The notes beneath the pieces were generated by a model, which had not been told where the DNA came from, did no database searches, and saw nothing but the letters and a program-made list of their open reading frames with translations. From an uncultured Archangium sp. (GTDB lineage: Bacteria > Myxococcota > Myxococcia > Myxococcales > Myxococcaceae), in NCBI GenBank assembly GCA_903861945.1, contig CAIOWM010000156.1, positions 1 to 27,197 on the forward strand: a stretch of DNA of 27,197 nucleotides. The letters are read 5' to 3'. Below, piece after piece: positions 6,412-17,696 of this stretch (positions are counted from its first letter, which is position 1; every line of letters starts with the position of its first letter). A program made the translations under genes and the position numbers.

Positions 6412-6585
6412 TCAGCGACGGACATCCGAATTCGCACCTCGCGCCACCCAGCCTCGAGACGGGCGAGGTCGGTCTTCTGTGCTGGTGCGGTTCAGCGTTC
6501 TTCGGGGGCGCCGTGCTCAACGAACTCGCGCGCACCTCGCCGGGGGCGCAGCATCAGCGCGCTGGCCCACCGAAGGGGGAAAGTC

Positions 6586-7413
6586 ATGTCGCTCCACCGC
6601 TCCTGCCTCGTTCTCTGCCTGGGACTCGCCGCCTCCGCCTTCGCCAAGGGTGACAAGCCCGGCTGCACCGATCACCCGCTCTTTCCCACGCGCATGCCGG
6701 GCTACGAGCTGACGGGCTGCACCACCTCGGAGTTCGACGGCTACGACTTCTTCGTGGCGAAGGGCCCGAAGCACCGAGAGGAGGGGAAGTTCTTCTACCT
6801 CCTGTATTCGATCCCCGACCGCAAGCAGGAGCAGAGCGGCGTGGCGGTGGTGCGCAACTACGAGAACGCCCTGCAGAAGGTCGGCGGCCACATCGAGGCG
6901 AGCGATCCCCAGCGCTGGGTGAACGGGAAGCTCACCGTCGATGGCAAGGAGGTCTGGGCCCAGGCCGAGAAGGGCAACGGCGTCATCTGGCTGCGCATCA
7001 TCGAGAAGGGCGCCATGGCGCAGCACATCGTCGCGGACGCGGCCACCTTCGCGACGGGCCTCGAGGCGACCGGGCACGTGGCCGTCGAGGGCATTTCCTT
7101 CGACACCGGGAAGTCCGTACTCAAGCCCGAGTCCACGCCCGCCCTGGAGCAGGTGGCCAGGCTGCTCGAGGCCGACGCGAGCCTCAAGCTGTGGGTGGTC
7201 GGTCACACCGACGCGGTGGGCAAGGTCGACGACAACCTGAGGCTCTCGCAGGCGCGCGCGGAGGCGGTGGTGACGGCGCTGAGCACCACGCACGGCATCG
7301 CCGCGACGCGGCTCAAGGGCTACGGCGTGGGACCGCTGACGCCGGTGGCCAGCAACGACGCCGAAGAAGGCCGCGCGAAGAACCGGCGCGTCGAGTTGGT
7401 GAAGCAGCCGTGA
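6586..7413 (+). CDS. OmpA-family protein with a C-terminal OmpA/MotB peptidoglycan-binding domain, 275 aa
   Basis: The N-terminus is MSLHRSCLVLCLGLAASAFA, a signal peptide. The C-terminal region ISFDTGKSVLKPES...LWVVGHTDAVGKVDDNLRLSQARAEAV...LKGYGVGPLTPVASNDAEEGRAKNRRVELV is the canonical OmpA_C signature (TD..G....N..LS..RA..V, NRRVE). GGGGGA lies upstream of the ATG. Confidence 0.85.
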   Translation: MSLHRSCLVLCLGLAASAFAKGDKPGCTDHPLFPTRMPGYELTGCTTSEFDGYDFFVAKGPKHREEGKFFYLLYSIPDRKQEQSGVAVVRNYENALQKVGGHIEASDPQRWVNGKLTVDGKEVWAQAEKGNGVIWLRIIEKGAMAQHIVADAATFATGLEATGHVAVEGISFDTGKSVLKPESTPALEQVARLLEADASLKLWVVGHTDAVGKVDDNLRLSQARAEAVVTALSTTHGIAATRLKGYGVGPLTPVASNDAEEGRAKNRRVELVKQP

Positions 7414-7512
7414 ACTCCTGGGGTGCGCCGAAGACGGCGATCGCTTACGCCCCTGCTTCTCCCCGGTTGCCCCAGTCACGCAGGGCCCCGGGTGACGCCA
7501 AAGAGGGCATCC

Positions 7513-10500
7513 ATGTTCGCGTTCGTACAGGTCGAGTTCCTCCGCATCCAGTCCGTCATCCGCGCGGGGGTCCTGGGGCTCGCGCTCCTGGCGGCCTCCG
7601 GCTGCGACGCCACCGTGGGTGAGCTGGCCTGTCCCGAGGGTGCCTTCTCGGGGTCGGACCGCGGGGTCTGCGCGCCCTGGACGGAGTGTCCTGCAGGGCA
7701 GCACCAGGTGGCTGCCGGAAGCGCGACGACGGACCGGACCTGCGCGAGCTGCGCCGCCGGGACCTTCAGCACGCAGGCCAACGCGGCGAGCTGCGCGGCG
7801 TGGACGACGTGCGTCGCCGGGGAGTTCGTCTCGCTCGAGGGCTCGGCCACCGCCGACCGGACCTGCGAGGCCTGCAGCGCGGGGACCTCCAGCACGGGCG
7901 TGAACCAGGCGGCGTGCACGGCCTCCGCCGGGTGCGAGCCCGGGACTGAGCAGGCGGCGCCAGCGACCACCACCGCCCCCGCGGTGTGCACGACCTGCAG
8001 CGCCGGTCACTTCTGCGCGGGCGGTGTGGCGCCGGCCGTGGCCTGCGGGCCCGGGACGTGGGACCGCGACGGGCTGCCCGCCACGGCGTGCGAACCGCAG
8101 AGCCACTGCGGCCCCGGGACGTCCGTGCTGGCTCCCGCGACCGCGACGGAAGACCAGACCTGCTCGGGCTGCGCGAGCGGCTCGTACAGCACCGCGACGG
8201 ACGCGGCGACGTGCACGCCGTGGGCGACGTGCCCGGCCGGTACCTTCGTCAACGACACGCCGTCGGCGACCGTCGACCAGACCTGCGCCGCCTGCGCGCC
8301 TGGAACCTTCACCACGGGCGCGAACCAAGTGACGTGCCTGGCGATCGGCGCGTGCCCTGCGGGGACGGTGCAGACGGCCCCGGCCACGGCGACGACGCCG
8401 CCCACCTGCAGCGCCTGCGTCGCCGGCACCTACTGCGCGGGCGGCAGCGCGACGGCCCTGGCCTGTGCCGTGGGCACCTGGGACCACGACGGTGATGCCT
8501 CGACGCCGTGCACGGCCCACACGGAGTGCGTCGCGGGGCAGTTCATGCTGACCGCGGGCACCGCCACCGCGGACCGGGTGTGTGGCGCGTGCGTGTCCGG
8601 CTACACCTCGAGCGGGAACCCGACGAGCTGCACCGCGTGGACGACCTGCGCCGCGGGCACCTTCGTGGCGACGCCGGGCACCGCGACGAGCGACCGGGTG
8701 TGCGCCGCGTGTGCCTCGGGCTACACGGCCAGCGCGAACGCGACGAGCTGCTCCGCGTGGGCGACGTGCGCGGCGGGGACCTTCGTGTCGACCGCGGGGA
8801 CGGCGACGGCCAACCGGGTCTGCACGGCCTGCGGCTCAGGCTTCACCTCGAGCCCGAACGCGACGAACTGCACGGCCTGGTCGGCGTGCGCGGCGGGGAC
8901 CTTCGTGGCGACCGCGGGGACGTCGACGGCCGACCGGGTGTGCGCCGCGTGTGCGTCTGGCTACACCGCGAGCCTCAACGCCGCGAGCTGCACCGCGTGG
9001 ACGACCTGCGCGGCGGGGACCTCCGTGGTGACCGCGGGCACCGCGACGGCCAATCGGACCTGCCTCGCGTGCAGCGCCGGCTTCACCTCGGGCACGAACG
9101 CCGCGAGCTGCACGTCCTGGACGACCTGCCTCGCCGGAACGTACGTCTCGACGGTCGGCACCGCGACGGTCGACCGCTCGTGCAGCCCGTGCGGCACCGG
9201 CTTCACGGCGGGCGCGAACGCCGCGGCCTGCACCGCGTGGACGACGTGCGCCGCGGGGACGTCGATCTCCGTCGCCGGCACCGCGACCAACAACCGGGCG
9301 TGCACCCCCTGCGCCTCCGGCTTCGCGCCGGGCCAGAACGCCCTGGCCTGCACCGCGTGGACGACGTGCCCGGCCGGTACCTTCGTCAGCACCACGCCGT
9401 CAGCGACCACCGACCGGGTGTGCGCGCCGTGCGTCTCCGGCTACACGGGGGCCCCGAACTCCCTGGGCTGTCAGCCGTGGAGCATCTGCACCCCGGGCAC
9501 CTTCGTGTCGGTCGCCAGCACGGCCACGTCGGACCTGCAGTGCACGGCGTGCCCCGCGGGCCAGACCAGCACCACGTCGAACGCGGCCGGGTGTCTGCCG
9601 GGCAGGTCCGTCGGCGGCACGGTCACGGGCCTGACCAGCGCGGGCCTGGTCCTGCAGAACAACCTGGGCGATGACCTGGCCGTCACGGCCAATGGCGCCT
9701 TCACCTTCGCGACGCCCCTGGCGGGTGCCGGCGCCAGCTACTCGGTCACGGTGAAGACGCCGCCGACCGCGAACCTGCCGCTCCCGGTCCAGGTCCAGGC
9801 GTGCACCCTGCTGAAGACCTCCGGGACGACCTTGCTGAACACCGGGTCGGGCACGGTGCCTCCCACCGGGAACGTCACCACCATCGAGCTGCGCTGTGGC
9901 GGGGCGTGGAGCGCGGTGGCGGCCGGGTACGCACACGTCCTGGCGGTGAAACCCACGGGGGACGTGTACGCGTGGGGCGACAACACCAATGCCGCGTTGG
10001 GCGACGGGACCACGACGGCACGCTCCACGCCGGTATGGGTGGGCGCCGGCCTGGCCAAGGTGGCGGCCGGCGGAAGCCACAGCCTGGCACTCGCTCCCGA
10101 CGGCTCACTGTGGGCGTGGGGGTTCAACTTCACAGGCCAGCTGGGCGACGGGAAGACGGAGGTCCAACGCAACCGGCCAGCGCCCGTGCCGCTGGCAGCG
10201 CCGCCCTTCCGCGCGGTGGCGGCGGGCCAGAGCCACACCGTGGCCGTCAAGACGGACGGGACCCTCTGGGCCTGGGGCAACAACGACTTTGGCCAGGTCG
10301 GGGACGGGACGACGGCGACTGAGCGCGATGCGCCCGTGCAGATCGGCACCGGCTTCGCGTCGGTGGCGGCCGGCGAGACCCACTCCCTGGCGGTCAAGAC
10401 GGACGGGACCCTCTGGGCCTGGGGCAAGAACGACTTTGGCCAGCTCGGGGACGGGACGACGACGCACCGCTTTGCGCCCGTGCAGGTCGGCACCGGCTTC

Positions 10501-10926
10501 GCGTCGGTGGCCGGGGGCTCCTCCTATTCGGCGGCGGTGAAGACGGACGGCACGCTGTGGACGTGGGGCATCAACGGCTACGGGGCGTTGGGAGACGGGA
10601 CCACCACGACGCGCCTCGCGCCGGTGCAAGTGGGGAGCGGCTTCGCCTCGGTCGCGACCGGCTCGTGGAACACCTACGCGCTCAAGCCCGACGGCACGCT
10701 CTGGGCCTGCGGGTACAACGTCTACGGGCAGGTCGGTGACGGGACGACGACGACGCGCACCACGCTGGTGCCCATTGGCCCGGGGTTCGCGTCCGTGGCC
10801 GCAGGAAGCAGCTTCGCGGCCGCGCTGATGTTGGACAAGACGGTGTGGACCTGGGGCTACAACGGCCGGTTCAGCCTGGGCACCGGTGGCACCGTCAACA
10901 GCTCGACGCCCCAGTTCCTGCCCTAG
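7513..10926 (+). CDS. Giant secreted protein of 1137 aa. It has about 20 Cys-rich, 40-aa repeats of the ephrin-receptor-like / GCC2_GCC3 / TNFR-like type, then a beta-sandwich linker, then a C-terminal 7-blade RCC1-type beta-propeller.
   Basis: The N-terminus [31 protein letters not shown] is a signal peptide. The repeat consensus is C.AC.SG(Y/F)T.....(T/S)C.AW(T/A)TC.AGTFV...GTAT.DRVC. The tail carries 7 copies of the RCC1 repeat [34 protein letters not shown]. The listed ORF 7423..10926 is trimmed to the ATG at 7513, which has AGAGGG upstream. Confidence 0.8.
8521..9480 (+). repeat. Intragenic tandem DNA repeat: 120-nt period (40 aa), at least 8 consecutive copies that are highly similar at the nucleotide level
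   Basis: The string tgcaccgcgtggacgacctgcgc(g/c)gcggg(g/c)acc(t/g)tcgtg recurs at 8629, 8749, 8869, 8989, 9109, 9229 and 9349, an exact 120-nt spacing. More diverged copies run from about 7700 to 8500 and from 9480 to 9600. Confidence 0.8.
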
Positions 10927-11054
10927 ACCAGGGGCTGGTGCCCGCGACAGGCAGGGTGCGCGCACAGGGGAACGCAACGCAGGACAGCCGCGGGTCACCT
11001 CGTGTCAGCAGCATCGCGCGGCTGCGCAGGGGCGCGGGTGTTACGCCTCGCCGT

Positions 11055-11681
11055 ATGGCCATCGCCTACGTCTATGACGGCACGCTGTACCTCGCGGTCA
11101 CGCGGCGCTGCACGCTCGCCTGCACCTTCTGCCCGAAGGTGCACGGCCGCTGGGTCGTCGCCGGGAACGACATGAGCCACGACCGCGAGCCGACCGTCGA
11201 CGAGCTGCTCGCCGCGGCGCGGGCGCTGATGCCGTCCGTGCCGTCGAAGAGGGCGGCCTTCGTCGGGCTCGGTGAGCCGACCATGTGCCTGGACGTGCTG
11301 GTGCCGGTGGGCCGCGCGCTGAGGGCCGAGGGCTTCCACGTGAGGCTGGTCACCGACGGGCTCGCCAACCTCCGCGCGGGGGCGGACGTCACGGCGCAGC
11401 TCGAGGGCGCGGTCGACGAGGTGAGCGTGTCGCTCAATGCGCCCGACGGGGAGACGTACGCGCGCGTGTGCCCGAGCAAGTACGGCGCCGCGGCGCACGA
11501 GGCGGTGTGCGCCTTCGTCGGCGCGGTGAAGCCCCATGTGCCCTCGGTGCTCGCGTCGGTGGTGACGGCGCCGGGTGTCGACGTCGAGGCGACGCGCGTG
11601 CTGGCGAAGCACTTGGGCGTGCCGCTGCGCGAGCGCCCGTACTTCGACCCGCGGCTGGGCGAGCCCCACGAGTCACGCTGA
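11055..11681 (+). CDS. Small radical SAM protein, 208 aa. It resembles the TatD-associated radical SAM family, but no TatD gene is present here.
   Basis: It has a CxxxCxxC cluster at the extreme N-terminus, YLAVTRRCTLACTFCPK. It has a Gly-rich SAM motif, FVGLGEPTM. Its size and the pattern AY...(S/T)LYL..T.RC..C.FC recall TIGR04038-type proteins; this is from memory and not searched. The listed ORF 10845..11681 is trimmed to the ATG at 11055. Confidence 0.8.
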   Translation: MAIAYVYDGTLYLAVTRRCTLACTFCPKVHGRWVVAGNDMSHDREPTVDELLAAARALMPSVPSKRAAFVGLGEPTMCLDVLVPVGRALRAEGFHVRLVTDGLANLRAGADVTAQLEGAVDEVSVSLNAPDGETYARVCPSKYGAAAHEAVCAFVGAVKPHVPSVLASVVTAPGVDVEATRVLAKHLGVPLRERPYFDPRLGEPHESR

Positions 11682-11745
11682 AGGCACCGAGGCGAGGCCC
11701 GACACGCGCAGCGCACCTGATTCGGGGCGCACGCCGAGCGGCGAC

Positions 11746-12693
11746 TCACAGGGCGAAGTCGAGTTGAGGCCTGCGCTGATGAAGGAGGCGCCGTAGGCCC
11801 TCGAGCCATGCGCCGTCTTCGAGGGAGCGCTTGGTGACGGGGACGTTGGCCCAGCCGAGCGCGGCGAGTTGGGCGCGTTGCCGCGCGTCGGTATCGAACG
11901 CGTTGCGGCGTGCGTGCCACAGGAAGCTGTCGGTGTGGAGGGCGACGCGGTGCTGGGGCCACGCGAAGTCGACGCGCATGACGGAGTGGCCGGCGTCATG
12001 GACCTCGAACTGCAGGCGAGGCGGGTCGAGGCTCGCCTTGCGGAGTGCGCGCCAGGCCCGAACCTCGAGTGCGCTCTCGGTGCAGCGCCCCTGGCGAACC
12101 CTGACGAGTTCGCGAAGCGTGGCGAGGCCGGGGTACTGGCGTTTGAGGCGGCCGAGGATCTTCTCGAGCTGTGGGCCGAGGTCCCGGAACCTGTGCTGGG
12201 CATCGTCGAGCGCAATTTCGAGGGCCTCTTCCTCGAGCACTCCGGCGAGGTCGATGATGGTGCGGGTGATGGACGTGGTGGGCATGCGCAGGTGGGTGCA
12301 CACGAGGAAGGGCTGCTGCGGTCGGTGCACGATGAAAGGACTGGGGAGCGAGCGGGAGCGCCGTCCGGCGACTGAGACATGGAGTTCGCGGGTGCACTGC
12401 TCGAGGCCTGCCAGTTTGTAGAGCGCGCCCGCCGTCTGGTGCGAGACGGCGCTTCCCGGGCCGGTGACGAGGGTTGCGGCGAACGCGCGTTGTCGCCAGT
12501 CGCCGTCGCCGCCGGGAAACCGGTAGGCCGAATGGAACAACCTCTCGACGCGACCGCGGTGGAGCGCGGACACCAGGGCGCTCCGGGTGATGCCGAGCTC
12601 ACCGCTGAACTGTGCAAGCGACACGACGCCGAACTGGGCCTTCGCCATTTCCGCCGCTGCCATCCACTGCGCCACGCCCATCGCCGCCTCCAA
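11746..12693 (-). CDS. DUF559 (Vsr/endonuclease-like) protein with an N-terminal AbiEi-antitoxin-like wHTH domain, about 300 to 315 aa
   Basis: The N-terminal region AQFGVVSLAQFSGELGITRSALVSALHRGRVERLFHSAYRF is AbiEi_4-like. The C-terminal region RVDFAWPQHRVALHTDSFLWH....D..R...L...GW.V..VT is the DUF559 signature. Codon usage is less extreme than in neighbours (more GCA/GAA/CAA/CTT). The start could be the internal ATG (MAKAQ) at 12648. Confidence 0.7.
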   Translation of the reverse strand: MEAAMGVAQWMAAAEMAKAQFGVVSLAQFSGELGITRSALVSALHRGRVERLFHSAYRFPGGDGDWRQRAFAATLVTGPGSAVSHQTAGALYKLAGLEQCTRELHVSVAGRRSRSLPSPFIVHRPQQPFLVCTHLRMPTTSITRTIIDLAGVLEEEALEIALDDAQHRFRDLGPQLEKILGRLKRQYPGLATLRELVRVRQGRCTESALEVRAWRALRKASLDPPRLQFEVHDAGHSVMRVDFAWPQHRVALHTDSFLWHARRNAFDTDARQRAQLAALGWANVPVTKRSLEDGAWLEGLRRLLHQRRPQLDFAL

Positions 12694-13916: not shown

Positions 13917-15365
13917 TCACGCTGGCGCAGTCGCGCGGTCCCGAACGGCGCCGTCGAATGCCCGGAGGCGGTGCACCAGCACCTCGCCCTCGATGCCCTT
14001 GAGATGCAAGCGCTCGGAGTTGGACGAGGCGAAGCGGGTGCGCGCGATCTCCAGCGCCGCGGGGTGGTCGAACACGTCCTGGGTGGTGACCACTTCGCCG
14101 GCGGCGGCCCTGGCCTGAACGCGGGCGGCGACGTTGACGGTGCGGCCGAAGTAGTCGAGCTGCTGGTTGGACTCGATGGCCACGCACGAGCCCACGTGCA
14201 CGCCGATCTTCAGGGTCAGTGACTCGCTCGCCTCGAGCTTCGCCATCTCTTCGTGCATCGCGGCCGCGGCCGCGAGCGCTCGGGAGGGCTCGGCGAAGCT
14301 GGCCATCACCGCGTCGCCGATGGTCTTGACCACCGCGCCCCGCTCGCGGGCGATGACCGACTCGAGCACCTCGAAGTGACGACGGACCAGCGCGAGCGCC
14401 TGGAGGTCGCCCACGCGCTCGTAGAGCTCGGTCGACGCGGTGAGGTCGGTGAAGAGAATGGCGAGGCTGCGCAGCTGCATGCCGCCGTCGGTGCCGACGC
14501 TCTGGGCGCGGTAGAGCTCGCGGAAGGTCTGGTTGGTGAGCAACTGCTTGGCGCTGACGAAGGGCATGAAGGCGATGACGTGTGAGGCCCAGTCAAAGGT
14601 CTTCGCCCACTCCGTCGAGGACCAGAGCATCAGCGCGGGGTGCCGGGTGCGGTTGCGGACGGTGAGCCGCACCTTTCCCGTGGCCAGGGTGCTGGTGCCG
14701 ACGAGGTGCCCGTCGATGATCTCGACCGACTGCACCGCCGCCCCACCCGGCCCCGCCTCGAGGTGCGCGATGGCGTGCTGGTTCGCCCCGACCAGCGCAT
14801 AGGAACCCTCGGTGAGCTCGAGGTCGAACACCGCGCTGGCCTCGGGTGCGATCCACGCCATGCGCTCCATCGAGTCGGCGATGGCCTGGTGCATCGGCCC
14901 GCGAATCAGGCTGCGGGAATAGAAGGCGTCGGTGAAGTGAGCGCGCACCTCTTCGAGCGTGCCCAGCCGCGTCGAGGGCAGCCTGCGAACGGCTTCGGCC
15001 ACGGTGAAGGAGGCCTCGACGGTGTCATCGAGGGAGACCGTCACCGGGCGCCGGCAGAAGTTGCACACCGCGCTGCGCTCGAGCTGCTGCAGCGCGCCCT
15101 TCGTCGCGACGTGGAGCCCACAGGCAGGGCACATGAGGTTCCACGCGAGATCGAAGATCCCCGCGTGGCTGGCGCAGAGAAAGAGGTCGAGCGCGTCGCC
15201 TTCGCTGACGCCCTCGCCCTTCGCCCACCCGAGCACGTTGATGCGTTCGAGGGAGGTGTCGGAGGCTTCGCGAACGAAGTGACCGAGCTTCGGCAGCAGC
15301 GACTTCAGTTGCGGGTACGCCCGCCCCATGGCTTCGAGGCGGCCTTCCAGAGAGGCCCATGACAT
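13917..15365 (-). CDS. Class III adenylate/guanylate cyclase (CHD catalytic domain) with an N-terminal Cys4 zinc-ribbon-containing sensor domain (DUF5939-like), 482 aa
   Basis: The C-terminal region LAILFTDLTASTELYERVGD....HFEVLESVIARERGAVVKTIGDAVMASF......AAAAMHEEMAKL......LKIGVHVGSCVA.....DYFGRTVNVAARVQ is the nucleotidyl cyclase CHD signature. The N-terminal region has CPACG...CNFC. The listed ORF start at 15458 adds a low-GC3, PRPPP-rich extension, so I prefer the ATG at 15365 (MSWASL). Confidence 0.8.
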   Translation of the reverse strand: MSWASLEGRLEAMGRAYPQLKSLLPKLGHFVREASDTSLERINVLGWAKGEGVSEGDALDLFLCASHAGIFDLAWNLMCPACGLHVATKGALQQLERSAVCNFCRRPVTVSLDDTVEASFTVAEAVRRLPSTRLGTLEEVRAHFTDAFYSRSLIRGPMHQAIADSMERMAWIAPEASAVFDLELTEGSYALVGANQHAIAHLEAGPGGAAVQSVEIIDGHLVGTSTLATGKVRLTVRNRTRHPALMLWSSTEWAKTFDWASHVIAFMPFVSAKQLLTNQTFRELYRAQSVGTDGGMQLRSLAILFTDLTASTELYERVGDLQALALVRRHFEVLESVIARERGAVVKTIGDAVMASFAEPSRALAAAAAMHEEMAKLEASESLTLKIGVHVGSCVAIESNQQLDYFGRTVNVAARVQARAAAGEVVTTQDVFDHPAALEIARTRFASSNSERLHLKGIEGEVLVHRLRAFDGAVRDRATAPA

Positions 15366-15409
15366 GCGCGCGATGTTAGTCCGGGCGCCGGTCGCCGTCG
15401 CCGCCTCAC

Positions 15410-15419
15410 GGGGGGGGGG
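15410..15419. repeat. G10 homopolymer tract (C10 on the strand that codes the cyclase), 45 to 55 nt upstream of the cyclase start
   Basis: Read directly: ctcacggggggggggccgagg. Runs like this are rare in this window. It would encode PPP if the longer cyclase ORF from 15458 were the real one. Confidence 0.9.
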
Positions 15420-15596
15420 CCGAGGTCGAGTCGGACCAGATGCGCGGCGAGCGCGCATCCTGCCCAGGTCAACGAGCGAAGTTGCGCGCAGGCTTCGATT
15501 CGCCGCCCCGGAGGTCGAGGCCGAGGCGCCGAAACGAACGAAGGCGGCGGAGCACCTCGCTCCACCGCCTCCGCAGGACGTCAGCTCAGCGGCGCC

Positions 15597-17597
15597 TCAG
15601 GGGCAGCGCGCCGTCTGCTGGCTGCACGTGCCGGTGCCGCAGAAGCGGCCCAGGCAACACAGCTGGCCTTGCCCACCGCAGGCCTCGCACTGGGTGTTGC
15701 CGTTGCACACGTCGCCGGCCCCGCAGTAGCGGCCGCCGGAGCCGCCGCAGCAGCGCTGGCCCGTGCCGCCGCAGGCCACGCAGGTGTTGTTGTTGGCCAC
15801 GGTGTTCGGGGCGGTGCAGCCCACGCCATTGCCGCACGGGGGCTGGCCGAGGCGACCGCAGGCCACGGTGGCCGAGAGGCAGCCCGCGCCCACGCAGATG
15901 CCCGCGCCGCCGCCGCACTGCGCGCCCGAGGCGGTGCAGGTGCGGTTGTTCTGGTCGCAGCAGCCGGCGCCCGCGCAGGTGTTGCCGTTGCAGCACGGCT
16001 GGCCCGGCCCACCACACGTGGTGCAGCCGTTGCCGTCGCAGGCGAGGCCGCTGGCGGTGCAGAAGTCGGCCGCGTTGCCCCCAGCGGCGCAGCACTGGGC
16101 GTTCGCCCCGGCGCCGCCACACTGCGAGCACGCGCCCGCGGTGCAGGTGCCGAGGTTGGTGCCACAGGTCGCGCCCGAGGCCACGCAGGTGGTGCCCGCG
16201 CAGCAGCCGCCGGCGCCGCACGCCGAGTTCTCGCAGCACGGCTGACCTGCGCCGCCGCACGCCGTCAACGTACCGCCCTGGCACACCGTGGTGCCGCCGG
16301 GGCCGTTGGCGCCCACCGCGAGGCAGGTCGAGCTCGCCGCGTCGAGGCACGTGCCGTTGTTGCAGGTGGTGCCACCGCAGGCCGCCTGGCCGGCGCCGCC
16401 GCAGGGGCCGCACAGGCCGCCACCGCACGCGAGCGTCGCGCCGTTGCAGCTGGTGCCGCCACAGCACGGCTGGCCGAGACCGCCGCAGCCCGCGCACTGG
16501 CCGGTGGCCGCGCACAGGTCACCGCCGCCGCAGGTCGAACCGCTGGCGAGGCACACCGAGTTGCCGCGCGTGTCGCAGCAGCCGCCGGTGCACGCCGCGC
16601 CCGCGCAGCAGGGTTCCCCGACGCCGCCGCAGGCCTGGCAGCGATTGTTGCCGCCGCACACGGTGTTGGCGCCGCACGCCACGGCCCCCGGACAGCAGGG
16701 CTCGCCGGGACCACCGCAGGCCGCGCACGCGCCCTGGGAACAGGCGGTGCCCGCGGCCGTGCAGGTGGCGTTGCCGCAGCACGGCTGGCCGGCGCCGCCG
16801 CACGTCACGCAGCTGGTGCCCGCCGAGCAGGTGGTCGCGCCCGCGGTGCAGGCCCCGCCGGGGCAGCAGGTCTGGGTCAAGCCGCCGCAGGTGCCGCAGC
16901 TCCCGTTGGCGCAGGCGCCGCCGATGCCGGTGCAGGTCGAGCCCGCGCCGACGCAGGCGTTGTTGACGCAGCAGCCGCCACCACCGCAGGTGCCCGCGGC
17001 GCAGCACGGCTGGCCAGGCCCGCCACACAGGGCGCAGGTGGACGGGTTCTGCCCGGAGCAGACGCTGCCCAGGTCGCACTGCCGGTTGGCGCAGCAGGTC
17101 TCGCCGGGACCGCCGCACACGGTGCAGGTGTTGTTGCGGCAGGTCGCGCCGGCCGCGGTGCAGCTGTTGTTGCCGCAGCACACCTCGCCGAGCCCGCCAC
17201 AGGTCGCGCAGTTGCCGCCCGCGCAGGTGCTGCCGGCCGCGGTGCAGCTCTGGCCGGCGCAGCACGCCTCGCCGATGCCGCCGCAGGTGCCGCAGCTGCC
17301 GTTGGTGCACACGCCCATGGCCCCGCCGCACGAGGCGCCGGCCGCGACGCAGGTGTTGCCCAGGCAACAGCCTCCGGCGCCGCAGGTGTTACCGGCACAA
17401 CAGAGTTCTCCAGCGTTACCGCACGACAGGCCGCCGTCGTCGAGCAGCGCGCTTCCGCCGCCGGTGCCCGTGCCTCCGCCGGTGGTGCCGTCACCGCCGC
17501 CCGAGGAGGCGCCTGCGTCGGGGTCGGCCGCGATGCCGTTGTTGCAGACGCACGCGGGGGCGAGCGCGAGGAGCGCGAGAATCAGCAGTGAACGCAT
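15597..17597 (-). CDS. Secreted Cys/Gly-rich repeat protein, 666 aa, with about 22 copies of a 27-28-aa, 6-Cys unit
   Basis: MRSLLILALLALAPACV is a signal peptide; the ATG at 17597 has GGAG about 10 nt upstream. The repeat unit is C.(T/A)CGG.G(Q/E)PCC.G..C(T/.)..G..C..G.C. There is no MYXO-CTERM tail. The listed ORF 15597..17687 is trimmed. The plus-strand ORFs 15669..17591 and 16288..17682 are Ala-rich and Pro-rich shadows. Confidence 0.75.
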   Translation of the reverse strand: MRSLLILALLALAPACVCNNGIAADPDAGASSGGGDGTTGGGTGTGGGSALLDDGGLSCGNAGELCCAGNTCGAGGCCLGNTCVAAGASCGGAMGVCTNGSCGTCGGIGEACCAGQSCTAAGSTCAGGNCATCGGLGEVCCGNNSCTAAGATCRNNTCTVCGGPGETCCANRQCDLGSVCSGQNPSTCALCGGPGQPCCAAGTCGGGGCCVNNACVGAGSTCTGIGGACANGSCGTCGGLTQTCCPGGACTAGATTCSAGTSCVTCGGAGQPCCGNATCTAAGTACSQGACAACGGPGEPCCPGAVACGANTVCGGNNRCQACGGVGEPCCAGAACTGGCCDTRGNSVCLASGSTCGGGDLCAATGQCAGCGGLGQPCCGGTSCNGATLACGGGLCGPCGGAGQAACGGTTCNNGTCLDAASSTCLAVGANGPGGTTVCQGGTLTACGGAGQPCCENSACGAGGCCAGTTCVASGATCGTNLGTCTAGACSQCGGAGANAQCCAAGGNAADFCTASGLACDGNGCTTCGGPGQPCCNGNTCAGAGCCDQNNRTCTASGAQCGGGAGICVGAGCLSATVACGRLGQPPCGNGVGCTAPNTVANNNTCVACGGTGQRCCGGSGGRYCGAGDVCNGNTQCEACGGQGQLCCLGRFCGTGTCSQQTARCP
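15700..17380 (-). repeat. Intragenic repeat array with a period of about 81 to 84 nt; the copies have diverged at the DNA level
   Basis: The periodicity is clear in the translation (CGG.G.PCC every 27 to 28 residues). DNA copies share ccgccgcaggc/ccgcagcacggctggcc-type cores, but they are not near-identical like the other two arrays. Confidence 0.5.
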
Positions 17598-17696
17598 GTG
17601 TGGGAGGCTCCGAGAGAGGGGGACGACGGTCGGCCAAGGCGAAGACCCCCGCTGGGCCTCATCGATCACACTTTGTTGGTAGGCCACGGACCTACG

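Follow-up and report, generated by a model that had tools for sequence, protein, structure and literature searches.

A putative lipoprotein of an uncultured Archangium sp. that joins a TNFR-type cysteine-rich array to an RCC1-like propeller

TNFR-type cysteine-rich domains (CRDs) are commonly regarded as having arisen in eukaryotic receptors. What would a bacterium do with a long tandem array of such domains joined to an RCC1 propeller? This question is raised by a single gene on contig CAIOWM010000156.1 (assembly GCA_903861945.1) of an uncultured Archangium sp. (Myxococcota), the 27,197 nucleotides (nt) of which were analysed as a whole and are referred to here as the window. The gene (7513..10926, + strand) had been described from its letters alone (i.e. 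the original prediction) as encoding a secreted protein of 1137 amino acids (aa) in which about 20 cysteine-rich repeats precede a beta-propeller, and a multivalent adhesin or receptor mimic had been suggested. The best explanation of the evidence set out below, to which we assign a probability of roughly 0.6, is that the product is a cell-envelope lipoprotein in which a TNFR-type disulfide-ladder stalk displays an RCC1 ligand-binding head.

The 1137-aa gene is real. Its open reading frame (ORF; 7423..10926, + strand) yields the 1137-aa product from the ATG at 7513. A Shine-Dalgarno-like GAGGG, read from the sequence at 7503..7507 (+ strand), lies 5 nt 5' of this ATG; this spacing and a public call of a 1137-aa gene favour a start at 7513 over the GTG at 7423. 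The GC content per codon position is 0.57, 0.70 and 0.94, as is typical for a real gene in the source genome, and the base composition of the window is uniformly GC-rich (~0.68-0.78). The public call was made independently on a metagenome scaffold of the European Nucleotide Archive (ENA), ERZ18638034 (50.8 kb), which was found via the exact protein sequence of the neighbouring OmpA-family gene, and the 1137-aa protein is also carried by a separate Logan assembly of run ERR4195033. Base-for-base identity was observed between the gene and the ENA scaffold, and identity to the Logan assembly across the first 2763 nt, the whole cysteine array included. As the two assemblies are identical over the array, the repeats are not an assembly artefact. 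An artefactual or non-gene origin was ruled out by the GC content at third codon positions (GC3, 0.94), the ribosome-binding site, the identical independent assembly and the hundreds of homologs. ORF, ribosome-binding site, GC3 and public gene call thus agree on the gene boundaries that had been predicted. Over 12.8 kb the window differs from the ENA and Logan contigs at eight single bases (1538, 1847, 1889, 7080, 7095, 7119, 7452 and 7465), all of them outside the 3.4-kb gene and two of them intergenic, just 5' of it. Antisense ORFs also overlie the cysteine array (8007-8429, 8961-9440 and 6517-8520, all - strand), two of them with a GC3 of >0.9; they are most likely by-products of GC-rich periodic sequence, indicating that GC3 by itself is misleading here.

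The identity of the array was examined by profile, sequence and structure comparisons. The cysteine-rich region, i.e. the proposed stalk (residues 31-694; 7603..9594, + strand), matched the Pfam family TNFR_c6 (PF00020) with an E-value of 2e-58 and 194.9 bits, far over the cutoff of 29.4, in 13 stretches of the whole protein and in 7 and 8 stretches when the region was split in two. The repeats had been predicted to be ephrin-receptor- or TNFR-like; the second half of this assignment was borne out, whereas Ephrin_rec_like (PF07699) remained below threshold (21.9 bits against a cutoff of 23.1, E=1.5e-4, residues 31-356 only) and did not appear when the whole protein was scanned. For some homologs, PF07699 is given in the precomputed Pfam annotation. 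A phmmer search of the region against PDB sequences returned TNFR-superfamily ectodomains and one related receptor, and nothing else (DR6, 6.2e-11; RANK, 9e-10; OPG, 1.6e-9; CD40, 1e-7), the units aligning to the four-cysteine CRD3-CRD4 of DR6. An AlphaFold2 (AF2) model of residues 217-516, built from a 30-sequence alignment, reached a predicted local distance difference test (pLDDT) score of 93.8 and a predicted template-modelling (pTM) score of 0.67. In a Foldseek search against the PDB, this model matched the ectodomains of TNFR2 (4e-7), DR6, DcR3, RANK, CD40, OPG, p75, 4-1BB, OX40 and TNFR1 at a probability of 1.0. Low TM-scores accompanied these matches, as rods that are long and flexible would lead one to expect, and the filament of the Chlamydomonas mastigoneme was returned as well. 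Profile search and structure prediction, the two checks that had been proposed for the repeats, therefore both came out in favour of TNFR-type domains. Similarity at the level of the domain does not extend to a TNF receptor: of the 15 full units, 13 lack the six cysteines and three disulfides of a canonical CRD, no Pfam domain was found on the protein besides TNFR_c6 and the RCC1 families, and the C-terminus is propeller up to the stop codon. The four-cysteine units presumably resemble the A1-B1 type in the module scheme of Naismith and Sprang.

The layout of the array differs in several respects from the simple series that had been predicted. Between residues 40 and 694 the cysteines follow a strict rhythm of gaps (3, 13/14, 6, 18; i.e. 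C-x2-C-x12-C-x5-C-x17). The first unit (C40-C77) stands ahead of a 140-aa super-repeat of 41+41+58 aa that occurs twice (residues 77-216 and 217-356; 7741..8580, + strand), as parsed from each CxxC. These copies make up the N-terminal part, which is thus not a run of simple units. They are followed by eight in-register 40-aa units of four cysteines each (residues 357-676; 8581..9540, + strand), delimited by unit comparison and Tandem Repeats Finder (TRF), and, from the parsing of units, by a terminal half unit (residues 677-694; 9541..9594, + strand). Thirteen of the full units have four cysteines per 40-41 aa, and six cysteines occur only in the two 58-aa variants, each of which holds one extra small module and ends a super-repeat with the motif C..C..G.[FY]C.GG.....C..GTWD.DG. 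The total is ~16.5 periods, made up of the 15 full units, the extra modules and the half unit, in place of the 20 or so repeats first counted. The proposed 40-aa period stands, with four cysteines per period and not six; the consensus string first given for it had five because it included the first cysteine of the next unit. The super-repeat was also seen in homologs, in which a terminal CxxCPxGQTSxxxNAxxC likewise precedes the head. In composition the region is dominated by five residues (A 21%, T 18%, G 10%, C 10% and S 9%, together 68%), contains no lysine and has a pI of 4.3.

The eight tandem units were correctly counted in the original prediction, with their position now corrected from 8521..9480 to 8581..9540, and had been described as nearly identical in DNA, recently expanded and prone to recombination. 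Pairwise DNA identities were found to be 61-83% (mean 70.5%) and protein identities 40-82% (mean 58%), and TRF reported a period of 120, 7.5 copies and 75% matches. The eight-unit consensus (C..C.sG.t...Na..CtaW.tC.aGT.v.t.gtaT..r.) is invariant at scaffold positions only, and the longest exact word common within the array is 28 nt. The units are therefore not near-identical, and neither recent expansion nor a high recombination potential accords with these identities and with zero differences between the two assemblies. The run arose by expansion of a single CRD type, specific to this lineage and not recent. A related protein from a Polyangiaceae metagenome-assembled genome (MAG; CAZAWR010000077.1, 9393-10945) contains 12 or more simple CRD units of 41 aa in tandem, with a 123-nt period and 70-87% DNA identity, around a 100-N scaffold gap (10498-10597) inside the array, indicating that unit expansion recurs in the family. 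Frequent recombination between units, with a stalk length that varies between cells or strains as at a contingency locus, would fit the exact 120-nt register of the eight units, the at least 12 similar units and gap of the Polyangiaceae relative, and the wide variation in array length among homologs. Such a locus is nevertheless quite improbable here: identity between units reaches just 61-83% with no exact repeat beyond 28 nt, the two assemblies agree over the whole array while the flanks hold the eight single-base differences, and the most similar DNA within the gene belongs to the propeller blades (91% identity, 35-nt exact word) and not to the CRDs.

A rod-like shape is suggested for the array, with a length of ~35-40 nm extrapolated from two known geometries. 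TNFR ectodomains extend by ~25 A per CRD, which would give a rod of ~40 nm. In the Chlamydomonas mastigoneme, tandem cysteine-rich domains form a disulfide ladder with ~11 A spacing that confers robustness (PMC10602792); at this spacing, 33 disulfides would give ~36 nm.

The N-terminus of the protein bears on how this rod would be held. Residues 1-30 form a signal peptide by pattern (7513..7605, + strand), with an n-region containing R11 and R17, an h-region and a lipobox-like A-S-G-C that ends in Cys31. The N-terminal hydrophobic signal of the original prediction was thus recovered, whereas plain secretion fits less well than a putative lipoprotein with Cys31 as the putative lipidated residue. 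The putative lipobox is of a relaxed type, with A at -3 instead of L, V or I. Homologs were examined among the best 120 database hits, to which all counts of homologs below refer (291 hits at E<=1e-10, best E 7e-228), and 97 of the 120 have a lipobox-like motif within their first 80 residues. Between C40 and C694 there are 66 cysteines, an even number that would leave C31 unpaired. Lipidation at Cys31 is suggested by the pattern, by its recurrence in homologs and by this even count; export beyond the inner membrane and surface exposure may be presumed.

Release from the cell, by signal peptidase I cleavage or by shedding, would instead mean that the product acts in solution, in association with the matrix or in outer-membrane vesicles. 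Signal peptidase I could cut at A-A-S|G, the RCC1-repeat protein MXAN_0889 occurs specifically in the outer-membrane vesicles of M. xanthus (PMC4158809), and that species exports some of its lipoproteins to the matrix (PMC3222651). A released protein is however rather unlikely, given the cysteine that recurs straight after the h-region in the same 97 of 120 homologs and the unpaired state expected of C31. Among M. xanthus lipoproteins, Lys at +2 is the inner-membrane signal and Ala at +7 the matrix signal (PMC3222651); the +7 residue here is Glu, against the matrix-associated Ala. A lipoprotein anchored at the cell envelope is accordingly kept as the preferred reading of this N-terminus.

Beyond the array lies a linker (residues 695-795; 9595..9897, + strand), in agreement with the short beta-sandwich-like segment that had been predicted after the cysteine repeats. 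The AF2 model contains seven strands at pLDDT 77-92, with an insertion (model residues 62-81) at ~50. No Pfam family matched these residues at E<=10, and the domain was not matched among the first 240 database hits. It does correspond to a widespread module of ~78 aa (VGGTVSGLxGxGLVLQNNGGDxLxVxANGxFTFAT...YxVTVxTQP...C...NVTxVxVxC), into which the copy studied here carries an inserted loop; 110 homologs of the module were collected, chiefly as tandem copies in short unannotated (metagenomic) fragments. The module is un-named and could merit a family definition of its own.

The remainder of the protein, up to and including the stop codon, is a seven-bladed RCC1-like propeller with WAWG-type blades (residues 796-1137; 9898..10926, + strand). 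RCC1 (PF00415) matched in seven stretches (E=4.7e-61, 203.6 bits against a cutoff of 21.7), RCC1_2 likewise in seven, and WD40_RLD (PF25390) with 432.6 bits against a cutoff of 150, over profile positions 33-343 of 363. The AF2 model of residues 695-1137 had a pLDDT of 91.7 and a pTM of 0.80, with the propeller part above 95 in pLDDT, and comprised seven sets of four strands and a C-terminal closing strand. Foldseek placed UVR8 first (E=5e-39, root-mean-square deviation 1.6-1.7 A over ~360 columns, target-normalised TM-score 0.86-0.89), followed by HERC2, RPGR, RCC1 (1a12, E=3e-26, target-normalised TM-score 0.74-0.76) and BLIP-II (3qhy, E ~7e-18, target-normalised TM-score ~0.7 over 290 columns). 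The seven blades of the original prediction are thereby upheld in sequence, by the seven PF00415 stretches and the WD40_RLD score, and in predicted fold, by four-stranded blades that superpose on UVR8.

Most propellers of the RCC1/BLIP-II type whose blades closely resemble one another are bacterial (PMC9218822), and bacterial RCC1 propellers proved to be very common, with 7970 of 8000 candidates scoring at E<=1e-10, many of them together with type IX secretion system or immunoglobulin (Ig) modules. Published surveys agree on this commonness (PMC9218822; bioRxiv 10.1101/2023.11.21.568195). Within the gene, the blade DNA at 10214-10317 and 10361-10464 forms the most similar internal repeat, at 91% identity; the blade repeats, which also include 10246 and 10393, share the 35-nt exact word, and TRF reported a period of 144 with 3.6 copies (10242-10758). 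These repeats are consistent with a recent amplification of blades, a process that has been described in RCC1/BLIP-II propellers of bacteria (PMC9218822).

A function for the propeller as binding head is suggested by analogy with protein- and ligand-binding RCC1-like domains and with BLIP-II. Guanine-nucleotide exchange on Ran would be implausible for this head because of its exported lipoprotein context and bacterial origin. BLIP-II itself, a secreted RCC1-like propeller of soil Streptomyces, binds beta-lactamases (PMC9218822), and its presence among the structural matches (3qhy) is compatible with a head that, tethered on its stalk, would be a tight-binding inhibitor of an enzyme of a competitor or prey, and not an adhesin. 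Such an inhibitor is very unlikely, as BLIP-II is matched far more weakly than UVR8, HERC2 and RCC1, the window offers no beta-lactam or enzyme-related context, and a soluble inhibitor needs no stalk of ~35-40 nm. A displayed ligand-binding head remains the favoured reading of the propeller.

Whether this combination of parts is peculiar to one locus was examined among public proteins and genomes. The best 120 hits are nearly all TNFR_c6-array proteins from Myxococcota-type MAGs or genomes (Polyangiaceae, Sandaracinaceae, Myxococcales, 'Deltaproteobacteria'). Nine of them combine TNFR_c6 with RCC1 (P0014 and P0102, both from Microvenator marinus, and P0021, P0022, P0076, P0085, P0086, P0089 and P0095), and species-representative genomes added four further TNFR-RCC1 loci (L001, L002, L008 and L059) from a Labilithrix MAG, Myxococcales bacterium 68-20 and other MAGs. 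These fusions share the order of parts, i.e. a lipobox-like cysteine, the array, the CxxCPxGQTS half unit and the propeller. The supposition that such a combination was without precedent in one bacterial extracellular protein was therefore overturned by the nine hits and the Myxococcota loci. Some public homologs already carry the automatic labels 'TNFR/NGFR cysteine-rich region' or 'RCC1 family protein'.

The RCC1 propeller is one of several heads found with the array, which in the same set of hits was joined to an SBBP propeller in 22, PF17829 in 13, RCC1 in nine, GH43/AbfB in five, fibrinogen_C in four, LamG in three, ZU5 in three and FGE-sulfatase in two. Searches with a profile of the stalk gave 6913, 2740 and 812 clusters at E<=1e-3, 1e-10 and 1e-30, respectively, among 1.84 billion representatives. 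The motif G[TS]WDxD occurs in 95 of the 120 hits and is absent from P0079 and P0080, two eukaryotic (EukProt) relatives that are type I membrane proteins, suggesting that the bacterial arrays form a clade of their own and do not reflect contamination or a very recent transfer. The protein has all four features of this family: a putative lipobox at the N-terminus, the 140-aa super-repeat with G[TS]WDxD, the half unit CxxCPxGQTS at the end of the array and a globular head at the C-terminus. Judged by its sequence, it is one member of a large modular family, with lipobox, TNFR array and variable head, whose architecture recurs in public data. A 521-aa lipobox protein of Sorangium sp. So ce1000 (NZ_CP150355.1, 8025-9590) has a few TNFR-type CRDs and a C-terminal domain that looks GH43-like by eye, and would exemplify a TNFR stalk with an enzymatic head; a second large protein that follows directly (9639-11981) also looks GH43-like by eye. 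Sorangium loci that seemed to match residues 1-697 were ruled out as orthologs, being shorter lipobox and CRD proteins with a GH43-looking head.

The joining of the array to many unrelated heads points to a role as stalk or spacer, and it bears on the receptor-mimic part of the original prediction, which did not hold up. A mimic or decoy would bind a TNF/C1q-like trimer or a eukaryotic factor of host or prey through the TNFR-type domains themselves, in the way of viral TNFR decoys. The array does resemble ligand-binding TNFR ectodomains in both sequence and fold, and the related arrays of P0079 and P0080 belong to type I membrane proteins of protists. At least 15 tandem CRDs are however far more than the three to four that form a TNF-binding site, most units have four cysteines with conservation confined to scaffold positions, the heads are diverse in both enzymatic and binding types, the bacterial GTWDxD signature is missing from the eukaryotic matches, and no TNF/C1q-like gene lies within the window. 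Mimicry is for these reasons highly improbable. The adhesin part fared better: an adhesin-like surface protein stays the most plausible reading, by inference from the stalk and head.

The origin of this particular fusion was considered by comparison of its parts. No ortholog above ~50% identity, over part of the length, was found in the collections searched, and a plasmid search gave a 49-nt match to the RCC1 motif and nothing else. Compared with RCC1-only proteins from a range of bacteria, the propeller shows 48-54% identity; against the CWG-type propellers that other TNFR-RCC1 fusions carry, its identity is only 28-40%, and the linker domain is missing from those fusions. From these identities of WAWG and CWG propellers, and from the missing linker, the head (linker and propeller) was most likely captured independently, by domain shuffling in a modular family.

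Taken together, the following mechanism is proposed. The protein would be exported and then lipidated at Cys31. Some 660 residues of TNFR-type CRDs would fold into an elongated, disulfide-laddered rod that is rich in A, T, G and S, free of lysine and stapled by 33 predicted disulfides. This rod would serve as a stalk, the far end of which holds the small beta-sandwich and the seven-bladed RCC1-like propeller as a ligand-binding head. The whole would act as a surface binding protein, in adhesion or recognition, and be neither a TNF-type receptor nor a Ran exchange factor.

Several points weigh against this proposal. Lipidation is assigned by pattern, and signal peptidase I could also cut after A-A-S; the +2 residue after Cys31 is Asp, which in E. 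coli is an inner-membrane retention signal. The geometry of the rod is extrapolated, the pTM of the array model is 0.67, and the disulfides are predicted. The A/T/G/S-rich surfaces of the CRDs could themselves bind something. No conserved neighbour gene was found as a functional hint, either with ten neighbours compared by tblastn against 78 loci or in five homolog contexts, and the literature searched gave no paper on bacterial TNFR-type arrays and no experimental datum for family members.

The single locus matters little by itself, since standard profiles identify both domains and public sequences contain further examples of the architecture. Of more consequence is the family picture: long arrays of TNFR-type domains, recognisable by direct sequence comparison with human DR6, RANK and CD40, carry swappable heads in bacterial lipoproteins that number from hundreds to thousands, most of them from Myxococcota. 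A broader claim, possible but doubtful at present, would be that TNFR-type CRDs constitute a large and distinct bacterial clade (GTWDxD, lipoprotein anchor), used in Myxococcota as a stalk of tens of nm for the display of swappable heads, and that the protein described here, with its independently captured WAWG propeller, binds a ligand of prey, kin or substrate. If true, this would amount to a surface-display system undescribed in the literature searched, and would be relevant to where the TNFR/ephrin-receptor CRD fold came from in evolution and to target recognition by myxobacteria. The model of a displayed head, if correct, would make these proteins candidate parts of the apparatus for contact and recognition in predatory and social myxobacteria, and the arrays would represent a compact, lysine-free, disulfide-stabilised spacer scaffold. 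The bacterial arrays are also a useful comparison set for the evolution of the CRD fold.

The genomic neighbourhood was examined for partners of the protein. An OmpA-family gene (6586..7413, + strand; PF00691, E=1.2e-16) is co-oriented with the gene and ends 99 nt upstream of it. On the other side lie an AbiEi_4-type antitoxin/transcriptional-regulator-like gene (11749-12693, - strand), a gene with DUF5939 and an adenylate/guanylate cyclase catalytic domain (13920-15458, - strand) and a 464-aa ORF with a GC3 of 0.91 and no Pfam match (16288-17682, + strand); the most GC-rich stretch of the window is 16001-17000 (0.78). The window further contains a radical-SAM gene (downstream) and genes for an S1-domain protein, a GDSL lipase, a beta-helix protein and a LysR regulator. 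Scans for consensus promoters and terminators gave nothing above chance, and the gene looks stand-alone.

The adjacent OmpA-family gene recalls the TraAB pair of M. xanthus, in which TraA has a lectin-like head on Cys-rich repeats, proposed by the authors as a rigid stalk, and TraB is OmpA-like (PMC3325183). A functional pair of this kind, in which the protein would work with the upstream OmpA-domain protein as TraA does with TraB in outer-membrane exchange, is suggested by the co-orientation, by the 99-nt distance and by these shared features. The NCBIfam scan of the protein however gave no family at E<=1, hence neither the TIGR04201 repeat nor MYXO-CTERM (TIGR03901), and the Pfam scan gave no PA14 domain. 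The OmpA neighbour was found in none of five homolog contexts, and an OmpA-like match was absent from related loci except three unrelated RCC1-only loci, the Myxococcota TNFR-array loci having none. Very little credence can therefore be given to such a pair. Membership of the TraA family itself was ruled out, given the lack of an NCBIfam match and of PA14 and a C-terminus that is a propeller strand.

The stalk-and-head lipoprotein may finally be set beside known systems. With the propellers of UVR8, the RCC1-like domains of HERC2, RPGR, RCC1 and BLIP-II, its head shares seven four-stranded blades with GQLGDG-type motifs; it differs from the eukaryotic RCC1-like domains in being putatively extracellular and lipoprotein-linked, in having no Ran or chromatin partner and in its WAWG motif, as against the eukaryotic-type blade motif. 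The Myxococcota/Bradymonadia TNFR-RCC1 proteins are its closest counterparts in architecture; P0021 and P0022 carry an extra N-terminal domain and P0014 carries InlB/EGF modules, all of which are missing here, and eight consecutive simple units were seen in none of those inspected, unlike in this protein. The design logic of M. xanthus TraA is similar, as a variable head is held off the surface by tandem Cys-rich repeats, and an OmpA-domain gene is adjacent in both. The polarity is opposite, the anchor here being N-terminal and the head C-terminal, and the parts differ: TraA has a PA14 head, TIGR04201 repeats and MYXO-CTERM, whereas the repeats here belong to another family and are accompanied by neither PA14 nor MYXO-CTERM. 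MST1 of Chlamydomonas likewise has tandem ephrin-receptor/TNFR-like CRDs, which build an elongated rod outside the cell with disulfides in a regular ladder. It is a eukaryotic glycoprotein that also contains Ig domains and a polyproline helix and assembles into a filament by polymerisation, of which no sign was seen in the protein described here. The TNFR ectodomains (DR6/TNFRSF21 CRD3-4, CD40, RANK, OPG and TNFR2) share with the array Cys-rich pseudo-repeats of ~40 aa with C-x2-G-x-[FY] and a clear similarity in sequence and fold, and like them the array is predicted to be elongated, disulfide-stapled and extracellular. The receptors have canonically six cysteines per unit and one to six units, as compared to mostly four cysteines and ~16 units in the bacterial protein, which is devoid of a transmembrane helix, death domain or TRAF motif. 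Where a TNFR is anchored by a C-terminal transmembrane helix, the bacterial protein has an N-terminal lipobox as its putative anchor and a propeller at the distal end.

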